Notes: a model not told the origin generated them from the letters alone. Positions 1,630 through 48,616 are shown, counted from the first letter of the stretch. The stretch is DNA of 64,000 nt from a bacterium (GCA_018663245.1 JABJEI010000012.1:9122-73121), one strand, 5' to 3'. Numbers and translations: made by a program.

Positions 1630-2118
1630 TTGCCCGAAGTCTCAGCGTAGTTCGTAGAACGTAGACGGACCAGTTGCGGCGTAGCTCAAAGAGCGAAGAT
1701 GAATCAAGCTAACTTTCATGCTTTGTTTTTTTACAAGCAAATATCTAAAACTTTTTGCGAGGGGTTGCCCACCCAACCCCTCGCGGACAAAGGTGCCGGG
1801 GGGACCCCTGGACTCCGACGTGCGTAACTTGAAACCTCGAGCTAACGCTCTGCAGTTTCTTCAACAGAGCGCACTCAACTGAGTTCTTTTTTATAGAATT
1901 ACTACTTGCTTAGAAGACAAGTTTTGAATAGGAAAGTTACTATCTATTTTGCCTGGCCTGCAAAGCCTAGAACTCGATAAATGAAGTTATTTTTAAACGA
2001 TTACCGCTGTTGCGACGCCCAAAAATAAACATTACCTTGCCTGCCCGGCCAAGCTTTACGCGAAGCCTGGGTCATCCTCGTGTATACGGGGATCCAGTCT
2101 TTCAATAGCTCATTTAAA
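1630..2118 (+). repeat. Composite intergenic palindromic element (locus R1)
   Basis: 1740-1868 and 2020-2118 match the reverse complement of 36178-36496; 1643-1665 matches 48593-48615; 1933-1968 matches rc of 13558-13591. Confidence 0.85.
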
Positions 2119-2155
2119 AAAACATGAAAAACCATTTTTAAGAATTTTATTAACG

Positions 2156-3334
2156 TTACCGAATACCAATAACATTTGCCATGTTAAATATCGGCAAATA
2201 GACGGCTATCATGAATAGCGCTATCAAAGCACCAAGCACCAAAACAACAATCGGCTGTACAAATGCAGTAAGCCTCTCTAGCGACAGTTTGATACGATCA
2301 TGGTAGTCAGATGCCAAAAGACCCAACTGAAGAGCTAACGTGCCCGATTCTTGACCAACAACAATCATGGCCAAAGACTCAGCTGCAAAAAGGCGCGAAT
2401 AACGTGCACCGACAACATCCAATGCCTCTCCCCCGTCCACTGCATCAACAACCTCGGACAGCTGCTCACGTACCGCAAGCCAAGTTGTTCCACTGTTTGC
2501 AATACGCATGGCCTGACTCAGCGGTATACCCGCTTCTAGCGCTAACGACGTTGCCCTAAAAAACGAAGCAACCTGTGAGTTTCTAATAATTGCCCCACCT
2601 GGCAAACGCAGTAACAAGCGTTGTACCCACGACGGCAAAGACCAACGAATAACAAGGCGAAACAGAGAATACCCGAGTAAGACTAGGGCAACCAAAGCTA
2701 TAATACCTTGACGACTAATTATAAAATGATTCAATGCAAACAAAGCACTTGTGGCCGGAGTTAGCACAACATTACCAAGAGCAAACACCTGCTCAAACTG
2801 AGGGACAACAATTACAAGCAAAAGAAGTACAATGCACATAAAAAAAACAAGCGTTATCAAGGGCCCTCTCAAAGCATTGCGCAACTGCTGTTTAAACGAC
2901 TCACGCAAGGCCAATGTTTTTGCTGTACCCTGCAGCGCCTTTACTAGCTGACTCGACTTATTGCCAGCATGTAAAAGTGGATATGAAGCAGCTGTAGGCA
3001 TTACTTTAATGAGCGAATCAAACAACGATGACCCTCGGGTAACCTCAAGAGCTATCGACTCAACCATGTCCCGCTCGTAACGATTACCCACACGCTTTGA
3101 TAACACATTCAGCGCATCAACAAGCCGTAATCCACGCTCAAGCATAACGGCCAAGAGAGCAAAAAATTGACTGTCATCGACTCGTACAGGCGGTAAAAAA
3201 ATTGTACGCCAAGCTGTCCGCAAACGGCAATCTCTTATCCCACGCCCCTCAAGCAACTGCTGGCACAGATCTCTGTCGGCAGCATAAACACAGCCGCGAC
3301 GACGGCCGTCACCTTTCCAAACAAAATAAGGCAC
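2156..3334 (-). CDS. pilC: Type II secretion/type IV pilus inner-membrane platform protein (PilC/GspF family)
   Basis: Two T2SSF repeats (GLRLVDAL; AGIPLSQAM..VGQESGTL), C-terminal AVYLPIFNM; GTG start. Confidence 0.85.
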   Translation of the reverse strand: MPYFVWKGDGRRRGCVYAADRDLCQQLLEGRGIRDCRLRTAWRTIFLPPVRVDDSQFFALLAVMLERGLRLVDALNVLSKRVGNRYERDMVESIALEVTRGSSLFDSLIKVMPTAASYPLLHAGNKSSQLVKALQGTAKTLALRESFKQQLRNALRGPLITLVFFMCIVLLLLVIVVPQFEQVFALGNVVLTPATSALFALNHFIISRQGIIALVALVLLGYSLFRLVIRWSLPSWVQRLLLRLPGGAIIRNSQVASFFRATSLALEAGIPLSQAMRIANSGTTWLAVREQLSEVVDAVDGGEALDVVGARYSRLFAAESLAMIVVGQESGTLALQLGLLASDYHDRIKLSLERLTAFVQPIVVLVLGALIALFMIAVYLPIFNMANVIGIR

Positions 3335-3378
3335 AACTACTCCTTGCTTTATAAACTGCTCTTAATTTTTTTATTTAA

Positions 3379-3666
3379 TTACATGAGTGACATCTGCTTA
3401 CTAAATCCTAGCTTCTCGTACAACTGCTCAATCGTTATACTTGCCTCGATCCGTATAAGTTTTTTGCGTGAAGTGCGACCCTGCACAATACGAACGCAAT
3501 CACGAGTAAACCCAAGCAATTTAGCCAGAAATTTGCATAGCTCATCGTTAGCCTTTCCTCGCTCTGGAGGACTCTTTAAAAAACATTTTAAAAGACCCGA
3601 CGCTTCCAAAACAAGATTCTGGCGACCGGACGAAGGCATAACCTTAATCTCGACGGTCAGTGCCAT
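3379..3666 (-). CDS. DUF167/YggU family protein
   Basis: VMPSS..SPPERGKANDEL..GRTSRKK signature. Confidence 0.9.
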   Translation of the reverse strand: MALTVEIKVMPSSGRQNLVLEASGLLKCFLKSPPERGKANDELCKFLAKLLGFTRDCVRIVQGRTSRKKLIRIEASITIEQLYEKLGFSKQMSLM

Positions 3667-3772
3667 ATCTTCCTCCCAACAAATATCGATAAATAATTAT
3701 GTAGTTTTGTGATGTTGGCACAAAATCAGAAATAGTTTATCCTGATAGGGTACCGACAACAAAGGGTACGAT

Positions 3773-46552: not shown

Positions 46553-47787
46553 GTCCAAGCAGAAGACAATTTAAGCAACTTACAGCGCTTGATATGCGCC
46601 AGATGCTTACCCCACTTGTCTAGCAACCAGATTGGACGCCGCTTACTACAAGCAGTCAGTAAATCTTTGTAAGTTTCTATACCCTCAAACATTCTGTTAA
46701 GCGGCAACTCATGCACCAATCCATACCCTCCACCGTAACCACGAGCCTCGATAAGTAGGCCTTTTTTTGCATTACTAACCGCAACAACATGCCCCGGAAA
46801 CCAAATTAAATCCCCATCATCAACAACCTGTCCCCGTTTTATCGGTTTCATGAATTTAGCCAATGTTGTCGAAGTCTCAAAGAAGTATGGCAAACCGGCC
46901 ATCTGTGTAGCCATCAACACCATATTTGAGCAATCAAGGCCCATTTTAGGCGAATGTGTTGCCTGCTCACGGTGATAATAAAAGTTACATAATCCTGGCT
47001 CACCCGGAAGTTTTGAAAATGCCTCTTTGGTACAGCGCACATCAGGGCTACGACCGCTCCAGACATACGGTATAAAGCCGTCATCATTACGGCACCAAGA
47101 ACGAATAATTCCCAAAAAATCACTAATTCGCCTAGTAATAGACTTAGCCTGAACGTCACTTGCCTTGATCAAATTTTCGGTTGGTATATCGACATTCAAC
47201 ACTTTGCTACAAAGGCTATCCAGCATCCAAACCCCCGTTGTCCGCGCATCGCGCCTACCATCGCACATAAATCTAACTCCCGCACACAGCAACCGACCAT
47301 CCGGCGATTGCCAAGATTTACCCAGGGTTACCAAATTATCTGGGCACAGAGTACTTGCATCATTAAACGATACTGCCGGCGGCAAATTAGCAAGATTAAT
47401 CCCCCGCTTATCTAAGGTCTCAAGTGGCACAATGCTCGACTTATTTACCCAATATTTAGATGCTGTATACCCCTTTTTGCGTTTTTTTAGTGATGCACTC
47501 TCGATAGCGACAAATGCATAATCTTCACGCATTTTTACCACCGTTACAATCTCATTAAATAGCAGCTGATGCCCTCGAGAACAGCGACGAGCATGATCGG
47601 CAAAACAAATCGGACCGTTCGTATGGAACGCCAACTTACCCGGCCATTTTGGAATAAAACCTGTATGCATGTCAGCAACTGGCACACAGCAAATAGCTTG
47701 ATATGGTTTGCCCTTCTTAAAAGCATTGCCATGCCAACAGCCAGCTACAAAAATAAAAAAACAAAAAGTAGATAGTAAACGTTTCAT
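46549..47787 (-). CDS. NlpC/P60 family peptidoglycan peptidase (YkfC-like)
   Basis: IPYVWSG..GLDCS..GDLIWFPGHV; N-terminal SH3-like QLLFNEIVTV. Confidence 0.8.
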   Translation of the reverse strand: MKRLLSTFCFFIFVAGCWHGNAFKKGKPYQAICCVPVADMHTGFIPKWPGKLAFHTNGPICFADHARRCSRGHQLLFNEIVTVVKMREDYAFVAIESASLKKRKKGYTASKYWVNKSSIVPLETLDKRGINLANLPPAVSFNDASTLCPDNLVTLGKSWQSPDGRLLCAGVRFMCDGRRDARTTGVWMLDSLCSKVLNVDIPTENLIKASDVQAKSITRRISDFLGIIRSWCRNDDGFIPYVWSGRSPDVRCTKEAFSKLPGEPGLCNFYYHREQATHSPKMGLDCSNMVLMATQMAGLPYFFETSTTLAKFMKPIKRGQVVDDGDLIWFPGHVVAVSNAKKGLLIEARGYGGGYGLVHELPLNRMFEGIETYKDLLTACSKRRPIWLLDKWGKHLAHIKRCKLLKLSSAWT

Positions 47788-47974
47788 GACAAGCGTCCCC
47801 CTTAATAAAATCCCTTACCCCCAGACTATCCAAGCAGAGACCTTAATCACAAGAGACCATCAGTTCAAAAATGAAACCTCAAAAGAAAGTTAAAATGCAC
47901 AAATTATTGATATTCTATTTTGAAATTTATTAAACTTAATATGATAAGAAACAACAATAAAAAAGGAATTCGTC

Positions 47975-48412
47975 ATGAAAAGGCTACATAAAATTCTTAT
48001 AATTCTGCTTACCATTGCACCTTTGGTCAAAGCGCGCCTTGTAAATTTCCGCAATAACTCAGACAACAACAGCACGGCAAGGTTGACCGCCACAGATCTA
48101 ACCAAAAACAAAAAATACACAATGCAGCCAAAAGCGATCTCACCATTGATGAACATTAGACCGTCAGACCTGCTAGTTGTTAAGCACGATCGCATCCCAG
48201 GGACACACTACATTCAAATCACAAAGGGCTCCTTACCAATCACAATTAATGCCAGCACGGCTATGCGCTTAACCGGACACAATCAACGTCAACGAGTAAA
48301 GAAACATGGGAAATTTATCCACCACACAAGCTCATACAGGACCATACAGACAGCATCTAAGCACCTGACTTACCCCATCAAAGAGTTGGAGTTTGTTGCG
48401 ACGACAAACTAA
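47975..48412 (+). CDS. Secreted hypothetical protein
   Basis: AAGGA RBS, signal ending VKA. Confidence 0.7.
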   Translation: MKRLHKILIILLTIAPLVKARLVNFRNNSDNNSTARLTATDLTKNKKYTMQPKAISPLMNIRPSDLLVVKHDRIPGTHYIQITKGSLPITINASTAMRLTGHNQRQRVKKHGKFIHHTSSYRTIQTASKHLTYPIKELEFVATTN

Positions 48413-48422
48413 TAAACAATCC

Positions 48423-48616
48423 TTTGCCTGCATGTCCTTCGTAGCTTTAGCGAAGCAGGAGCCGGCGAAGCTTTACGCGAAGCCTGGGAAGCTAACGCTT
48501 TTAGGCTGCTTCAAACAGTTCTGCTAATAATGAAAACCTTTAGAAACTTCTTGCCCCTGCATGCCCTTCGTAGCTTTAGCGAAGTAGGGTCACAGCGCAG
48601 TTCGTAGAACGTAGAA
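48423..48616 (+). repeat. Composite palindromic element (locus R6) with nested units
   Basis: Two CCTTCGTAGCTTTAGCGAAG units, GGCGAAGCTTTACGCGAAGCCTGGG, AAGCTAACGCTT and AGTTCGTAGAACGTAGA modules. Confidence 0.85.

Follow-up and report, generated by a model that had tools for sequence, protein, structure and literature searches.

CCTG-tagged hairpin cassettes beside the GTC tag of Ssn-related motifs suggest secondary insertion into a known bacterial repeat

Short hairpin units of about 31-36 nucleotides (nt) stand at one defined position of a second hairpin repeat in a 64,000-nt stretch of bacterial DNA (GCA_018663245.1, JABJEI010000012.1:9122-73121), which we call the window. It covers positions 9122-73121 of contig C5 in a 902,779-bp assembly of 29 contigs, which is 85.6% complete and whose contigs break at repeats. 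By sequence, the second repeat belongs to the Ssn-related motifs (SRMs; dRS3/NTS of Neisseria), i.e., the CGTC-tagged repetitive extragenic palindromes (REPs); we refer to each single copy as an arm. The units are a separate, order-wide family of CCTG-tagged hairpin cassettes. They look like discrete cassettes that entered unpaired positions of the SRM hairpin without target duplication. With a probability of about 0.55, we favor the reading that these order-wide cassettes entered SRMs secondarily, at the edge of the GTC tag and on single-stranded DNA (ssDNA), by way of an Ssn-type nick.

The presence of BamA, ankyrin and Sel1 repeat proteins, a D-Ala-D-Ala ligase fusion, and a penicillin-binding protein indicates a small, diderm, symbiont-like host, and DNA of this organism is present in marine metagenomes. 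Comparisons were made with relatives from the same order only. All of them belong to other genera and families, and alignment with this genome is not possible for their intergenic DNA. Most presence counts refer to 150 relatives, and the pattern for insertions in loops was searched in 260; the relatives in the co-occurrence counts over 150 are kin and not independent of each other.

Arms were searched for genome-wide with the pattern T[CG]A[TG]YY, 8-14 nt, G[GA]ATCCAG. Two of the 53 matches were spurious (C20:66425 and C13:89287), leaving 51 arms. An arm (~30 nt) is composed of a TGTC tag, a 7-bp stem (ATCCCCG/CGGGGAT), a loop of 8 nt (GCTTTGAA) or 6 nt (TGAATA), and a CCAG tail; its folding energy lies at z -2.2 relative to shuffles. 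In 37 arms, TCATCC is directly preceded by TTG (30 arms), CTG (6), or TCG (1), and we call these arms empty. In the other 14, a 31-36-nt unit ending in GG stands directly before TCATCC, and these arms are filled. Inverted doublets of 138-165 nt with outward tags account for 28 arms: no arm is filled in eight of the 14 doublets, one arm in five, and both arms in one. The remaining 23 arms are solo, seven of them filled.

The 37 empty and 14 filled paralogues bear out the proposal of a first-pass annotation, made from the window, that the units are discrete cassettes of ~31-36 nt with fixed ends, placed within another repeat and with no duplication of the target. On the left side of their unit, filled arms have TTG (12/14), TCG (1), or AGC (1). 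The flank of the empty arms is conserved: G stands at position -1 in 37/37, and T at -2 in 36 and at -3 in 31; positions -4 to -7 are pyrimidines, and -13 to -18 form an A-rich block. All 14 filled arms, taken together, show the same profile on the left of their unit. Since the conserved flank resumes beyond the unit, the unit splits a longer, pre-existing element. Because a G stands on both sides of it, the insertion point can be read as TT^GTC or TTG^TC; under the TT^GTC reading, the GTC tag stays intact. Units of type A (4), type B (3), type C (6), and an A/C chimera (1) fill the 14 arms, all in the same orientation. That at least three unit sequences share common boundaries thus stands: all three types occur at one site, across both types of arm and both variants of the loop.

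In the window, five of the seven arms are filled. A type A unit, consisting of the CCTG tag and the hairpin, lies at 2040-2071 (+) before a solo arm with the TCATCCTCGTG... variant (2072-2097, +). A second type A unit (36222-36253, -) fills a solo arm at 36196-36221 (-). A type B unit (22098-22133, +) precedes a degenerate solo arm (TCAGCC..., 22134-22161, +). The other four arms form two doublets. In the 164-nt doublet, the left arm (13379-13406, +) is empty (CCTTG^TCATTCC...) and the right arm (13515-13542, -) is filled with a type C unit (13543-13573, -), which is chimeric, with a 3' half that forms no pairs with the 5' half. In the 159-nt doublet, the left arm (40689-40716, +) is filled with a type B unit (40653-40688, +) and the right arm (40820-40847, -) is empty. 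The two doublets are close paralogues, yet the first has a C unit and the second a B unit. The empty form CCTTGTCAT is found at 13374-13382 and, in reverse complement, at 40844-40852, so that each doublet indeed combines one empty with one filled arm. A sixth unit, of type B (48554-48589, +), lies between TTG and TCACAGCG, which belongs to another repeat and not to an SRM. All six units were found where the first-pass annotation had placed them, each between TTG and TCA.

Further unit-like sequences in the window stand outside arms. A B-like unit occupies 12477-12519 (+) in a non-SRM context. At 48427-48488 (+), a B-like unit is followed by a tagless A unit, either in tandem or with the B unit inserted between the tag and the stem of the A unit. 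Several unit-like modules form a composite between TTG and TCG at 36066-36135 (-). The last two sites had been described as nested units; the compound structures exist, and they can be read equally well as tandem or chimeric units.

The published degenerate SRM pattern (taken from the available portions of Chenal et al. 2025, PMC11893778) had 36 matches in the genome versus 2 in a reversed control. It matched 35 of the 37 empty arms and none of the 14 filled arms, because position 1 (H) is G in the latter, their sole mismatch. With the CGTC-tagged REPs, the arms share an unpaired tag (TGTC in 30 arms, CGTC-like in 7), a stem starting with AT, a CCA tail, and the arrangement in inverted dimers (14 doublets). 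Their stem of 7 bp and loop of 6-8 nt depart from the 8-9 bp and 4-5 nt given for that class. At least 120 DNA stretches, from a wide range of phyla, contain the core arm motif, in most cases after CG or TG, which agrees with the description of CGTC REPs in PMC3733652. [quoted passage not shown]

In an Rfam search with E-value thresholds, the doublet at 40688-40848 gave a match below the gathering score to the Wolbachia small RNA WsnRNA46 (37.9 bits, gathering score 65.3, E 1.5e-6), a resemblance that hints at transcription of doublets of this kind in other symbionts. Matches to plant microRNAs were rejected, as they reflect a long hairpin only. Three composite repeats (G000:C6:207-300, C18:4453-4560, and C20:6790-6869) have a TCATCC that runs straight into TCTTTCAG, a sequence of the inner arm; the 22-nt arm hairpin is missing, and a unit is present upstream.

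SsnA is a 94-amino-acid (aa) single-domain GIY-YIG nuclease that binds the NTS/SRM motif as ssDNA and, in Neisseria, cuts a few nucleotides upstream of it in the variable flank; cleavage is governed by the three bases (GTC) before the palindrome, and the NTS-ssnA-NTS layout resembles an insertion sequence (available portions of PMC11893778). The assembly contains two GIY-YIG matches, one UvrC-like and one stand-alone. The stand-alone gene (G000:C4:1912-2190, outside the window) encodes 93 aa with a PF01541 match (61 bits, residues 2-74) and no other domain. Tyr6, Tyr17, and Glu64 were found, by inspection of the translation by eye, at the positions mutated in SsnA. The protein gave a weak sub-threshold match to a group I intron endonuclease model in NCBIfam and matched only the UPF0213 entry 1zg2 in the PDB (E 1.4e-4). 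An arm lies ~65 nt from the gene.

Homologues of ssn are present in 70 of the 150 relatives, in up to 7 copies. Inverted repeats of 22-92 nt flank the gene at 28 of 30 fetched loci (L171-L199 among them). A GTC(A/G)T tag was recognized by eye at 22 of the 30, most of which end in ATCCA; the strict published SRM pattern matched on both sides at 4 loci, on one side at 3, and on neither side at 23. In relatives, ssn behaves like an insertion sequence of 400-520 bp. The 93-aa gene of this assembly, which lies beside an arm, is predicted to be of the Ssn type. The arms, the doublets, and the nuclease gene are hence an already known system; recognizing the target as the SRM with its GIY-YIG gene goes beyond the first-pass annotation, as does the finding that the same hairpin family trails tRNA genes order-wide (see below).

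The units follow a common plan of a CCTG tag, a 6-nt stem, G(A/T)AGC, a 3-7-nt loop, GCGAAG, and the return stem; at the tag, type B has an extra CATG. A strict pattern of this plan matched 38 times in the genome and not at all in the reversed control. TTG stands directly 5' of 15 of these 38 units and TTG plus CC before 3 more, against a TTG background of 2.8%. The tag is CCTG or one of the variants CCTT, CTTG, and TCTG, and not the GTAG of REPs with their tyrosine transposases (RAYT) and of IS200/IS605. A narrower pattern matched 22 times here and was present in 75 of 150 relatives, spanning most families, with no control matches anywhere. In L141 (G022:C12:27107-27231), which is from a relative of another family, four 31-nt units form a head-to-tail array. 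In Rfam, the units matched nothing with E-value thresholds, and the window matches at gathering thresholds were 5 tRNAs only.

Pairing of the stem was scored in 63 units, 38 from this genome and 25 from three relatives. With a lenient score that allows G-T pairs and one bulge, it reached 5.33 of 6 positions, whereas shuffled partners gave 4.62 (at most 4.89 across 500 shuffles). The 63 units include 37 distinct stem pairs, many of them changed on both sides. The resulting fold comprises a 6-bp covarying stem, an internal loop in which G(A/T)A faces GAA, a 2-bp helix of GC pairs, and a small loop. What the covariation favors is thus a single longer hairpin with the two GNA triplets opposite each other; the cGNAg mini-hairpins that had been proposed are not supported, nor are they needed. 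The C-GNA-G triplets on which that proposal was built are present, except that the unit at 2040 has one C-GAA-G and, as its other triplet, C-CAA-G. The heptamer GCGAAGC is, however, enriched (122 vs. 37). Type C has no fold on its own.

The best conserved copies of the unit family are 3' trailers of tRNA genes. Here, the unit hairpin lies on the opposite strand, its stem starts with the tRNA's own CCA (CCATTC...GAATGG), and CAGG often follows. A strict script found such trailers at 9 of 38 tRNA genes, of which the one at tRNA-Ile is doubtful, and inspection by eye found ~16 of 38. Two of them are in the window. The trailer of tRNA-Ser(gct), at 3861-3890 (+), belongs to the unit family when read on the opposite strand and has CCA at its foot; that of tRNA-Ser(tga), at 9981-10044 (+), has an A-like hairpin (9981-10010) with CCA in the stem, followed by a B-like core and, after it, the CAGG tag. 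In relative G031, 2 of 10 inspected units abut a tRNA gene (L150 and L151). Possibly, the trailer hairpin is an order-typical signal for termination or for processing of the 3' end. A conserved tRNA-trailer hairpin family has, then, spread elsewhere in the genome.

Units also occur in the loops of arms, once in this genome (C14:41740) and repeatedly in relatives. An "arm start then unit" pattern was found at 14 sites in 10 of the 260 relatives, from 5 families, and not in reversed controls. Right after the unit, the 3' half of the arm resumes at 9 of the 14 sites in an exact 6-mer test and, by eye, with a mismatch at the other 5. The contexts to the left of these loop insertions are varied and have no single tetranucleotide in common. 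Thus, the earlier suggestion that the units target other repeats extends to the loops of the same repeat class in other lineages. The junction of a unit with TCATCC, which occurs 12 times here, was found in none of the 150 relatives; therefore, the class at the tag site is specific to this lineage.

We propose the following route. Cassettes would enter SRMs right at the GTC tag's 5' edge, all oriented alike and leaving no duplicated target, and in other lineages they would enter SRM loops. All positions at which units are found, namely, the tag edge, the loops, and the gap between the tag and stem of a sister unit, are unpaired in the extruded arm, which favors insertion on ssDNA, at nucleotides that stay unpaired when the SRM hairpin is extruded. 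In the tag class, an Ssn-type nuclease cutting beside its motif would provide the break; such a nick is the likeliest entry that we infer for this class. Host repair or ligation would then seal the cassette in.

Several points weigh against this route. No locus was found in both an empty and a filled allele: metagenome contigs end at repeats, and there is no close relative for an orthologous comparison. Contigs (not reads) from 4 of 16 marine or seawater metagenome runs, compared with window positions 35800-48800, contained the same strain only, were broken at repeats, and included no joint that skips exactly one unit. Scanning metagenomes for BamA found only relatives at 38-46% identity, which have neither SRMs nor units. 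The presence of units tracks ssn weakly (42 of 70 relatives with ssn vs. 33 of 80 without), and an arm lies on just one side of the host's own ssn gene. A DNA-joining activity is not known for GIY-YIG nucleases. As noted above for Neisseria, Ssn cuts upstream by a few nucleotides, in the variable flank, and not at G^TC (PMC11893778, available portions). Such an upstream cut cannot explain the loop insertions, for which another break is needed.

Other points against it concern the units themselves. With nearest-neighbor DNA energies, they fold no better than shuffles (z -0.15 to -1.26, type C +0.94); because these energies are unremarkable, the unit hairpin rests on the covariation of the stem. 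Relative to GC skew, units are distributed without strand bias (23:15). The units of type C are chimeras, in that the 3' half is always found with TCATCC and the 5' halves vary (C7:64415 and C6:207). Finally, window positions 1940-1968 contain a 29-nt copy, 97% complementary to 13557-13585, of the flank and the left half of a type C unit, and this copy has neither the right half of the unit nor an SRM arm. So recombination or truncation also shapes these clusters, and their modules are clearly also reshuffled by recombination.

These chimeras lend weight to an explanation without mobility, in which the units are hairpin modules with a function at the RNA or DNA level, such as 3'-end processing, termination, or stability, as behind tRNA genes. 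They would have been joined to a few SRMs by recombination or gene conversion via the shared GAAGC/GCGAAG core and then copied with the SRM or kept by selection, for example, because they shield the Ssn cut site. An order-wide family with compensatory stem changes is what one would expect of such modules, as are the CCA-anchored trailers after 9 to 16 of 38 tRNAs and the location of the clusters after gene 3' ends. The chimeric type C, one 3' half of which recurs beside TCATCC, the flank and half-unit copy at 1940-1968, and an upstream flank family common to 6 of the 14 filled arms also fit. However, identical units in unrelated contexts have sharp common boundaries, and paralogue contigs diverge exactly at 36222 and 36253. 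Three unit types occupy the same site, on both arm types and loop variants; loop insertions at many positions in 5 families are hard to obtain via homologous recombination; and no T-run follows the units. We regard this explanation as unlikely.

The mechanism put forward in the first-pass annotation was that the units are non-autonomous ssDNA mini-transposons, which are mobilized in trans by an HUH enzyme (TnpA of IS200/IS605 or RAYT-like) and insert 3' of a short target, here TTG; in such a model, CCTG would stand in for the GTAG guide of REPs. Fixed ends, the lack of duplication, the single orientation, the unpaired 4-nt tag at the foot of the hairpin, and TTG or G on the left all suit this idea. 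Furthermore, genes for Y1 transposases are common in the order (54 of 150 relatives), and the present assembly is incomplete and broken at repeats. Yet this assembly, within its 85.6% completeness, contains no Y1/HUH gene (0 PF01797 matches), and none of the transposition domains IS110 DEDD, TnpB, rve, or DDE_Tnp_1, and no reverse transcriptase. It does have two tyrosine recombinases, which are probably XerC/D. No CCTG-tagged unit was found within ~1.5 kb of the Y1 gene at 8 inspected loci of relatives, and a single untagged core match was seen, in L138; a Y1 gene flanked by units, which had been suggested as a check, was thus found neither there nor in the assembly. Unit presence tracks Y1 weakly (33 of 54 relatives with Y1 vs. 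42 of 96 without), and units are abundant in relatives that have no Y1, including 8 of the 19 with at least 5 units. The varied left contexts of the loop insertions and the lack of a lagging-strand-like orientation bias also speak against it, and we consider this mechanism very unlikely.

Least probable of all is a reversed polarity, with the filled form ancestral and the unit precisely deleted or with an SRM element transposing to just after an existing hairpin unit: the one G common to both junctions would provide a 1-nt microhomology, SRM elements are insertion-sequence-like and multi-copy in relatives, and the identity of the inverted repeats at ssn ends, by eye, 0-3 nt upstream of GTC, where the unit abuts, but 37 empty arms have one junction in common, the ssn-flanking arms of relatives have no unit at the tag, the unit-TCATCC junction is missing from all 150 relatives, the YYYTTG flank with its A-rich block beyond the unit means that the unit splits a pre-existing element, and an SRM landing beside a unit cannot give loop insertions.

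Returning to cassettes that enter SRMs through a nick, a bolder version of this idea is conceivable, although we hold it to be rather unlikely. According to it, the CCTG hairpins would be the smallest bacterial mobile cassettes yet seen (~31-36 nt). They would be derived from tRNA trailers and would move as single strands into unpaired nucleotides of hairpin repeats, i.e., the GTC tag or the loop of Ssn motifs and the gap between the tag and stem of sister units. Lacking a transposase of their own, they would exploit nicks made by Ssn or another hairpin-directed nuclease, together with host ligation. Such "nick-and-patch" would build mosaics of the type known as bacterial interspersed and Neisseria intergenic mosaic elements (BIMEs and NIMEs).

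BIMEs of enterobacteria and NIMEs of Neisseria are mosaic clusters of intergenic repeats. The clusters described here are likewise intergenic, are made of a few hairpin modules with recurrent orders and boundaries, and follow gene 3' ends. They differ in that one module is present or absent at a site in another that is defined to the single nucleotide; in the portions of the literature available to us, such insertion polarity was not found described for these mosaics. How BIME and NIME mosaics assemble and how REP-type repeats multiply are long-open questions, which these findings touch. Targeted insertion of tiny cassettes could help explain mosaic repeat clusters in bacterial genomes.

The closest known system is Ssn/SRM itself, as presented in the available text of PMC11893778. 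Common features are the (H)GTC tag, the palindrome starting with AT, the C right after the palindrome, the ~94-aa single-domain GIY-YIG gene that is flanked by the motif like an insertion sequence, and the symbiont-like hosts. Not mentioned in that text is a second, unrelated hairpin cassette, which in 14 of the 51 motifs here stands exactly where the flank meets the GTC tag and in relatives lies in the loop. The loops here are longer (6-8 nt), and cleavage by the 93-aa homologue would be by analogy with SsnA. A repeat is thus seen present or absent, within one nucleotide, inside another repeat and at the edge of the GTC bases that govern Ssn cleavage (PMC11893778). The role of Ssn nucleases outside Neisseria is also at issue, and a question for the bench is whether Ssn cutting provides an entry point for hairpin cassettes. 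If the link to Ssn is false, there is still a clean catalogue of SRMs and Ssn in a small marine symbiont-like genome.

The class of CGTC-tagged REPs, which includes dRS3 of Neisseria, shares with our arms a TGTC tag variant, the AT stem start, the CCA tail, and the mostly inverted intergenic dimers (Di Nocera et al. 2013, PMC3733652). The portions of that article available to us report no dedicated enzyme for the class; here and in PMC11893778, the dedicated enzyme is the product of the Ssn gene. They do mention REPs "inserted within" other palindromes in some species (PMC3733652). The CCTG of our units is neither of the two tags treated there, and here, the CGTC REP is the recipient and not the insert.

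Similarities to REP/REPIN-RAYT and IS200/IS605 systems are the hairpin with an unpaired 4-nt tag, the lack of target duplication, non-autonomous copies mobilized in trans, and inverted doublets. The differences are the missing Y1 gene, the other tag, the single hairpin per unit, and Y1 loci in relatives that are not flanked by units (0/8). Unlike MITEs, which have terminal inverted repeats and a target-site duplication, each unit is a single hairpin, and no duplication was found at any of the 14 sites. QMITE2, a GTAG REP of Coxiella burnetii and the target of IS1111, is a palindromic, MITE-like insertion target of 150-190 bp, to which repeats of distant bacteria are related (Wachter et al. 2018, PMC5896051, available portions). 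The insert there is a full IS110-family element, and here it is a 31-36-nt cassette. QMITE2/IS1111 was considered as an identity and rejected, since the kinship of the host excludes Coxiella and the IS110 DEDD domain is absent from the assembly. Literature searches, limited to the portions of the articles available, found no description of the CCTG cassette family, of its link to tRNA trailers, or of its precise position in Ssn motifs, be it at the GTC tag or in the loop.

Other repeats adjoin the units. A third family of hairpin repeats, at window positions 1740-1797 and 36439-36496, is a GC-rich palindrome (GCGAGGGGTTG...CAACCCCTCGC) with 58-nt arms that are 91% complementary; it also lies beside units on C14, C17, and C19. 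The open reading frames (ORFs) flanking the three paralogous clusters on these contigs include nothing transposase-like as judged by ORF layout, with no Pfam scan made. A repeat of ~62 nt (AAGCTAACGCTTTTAGG...CTGCTAATAATGAA), at 22023-22084, 36322-36394, and 48488-48549, abuts units on either side and is a further mosaic module. Elsewhere in the window, two adjacent large ORFs with 93-nt tandem repeats occupy positions 22373-26189 and encode 663 aa (the only one of the pair that was scanned, without a Pfam match) and 545 aa.

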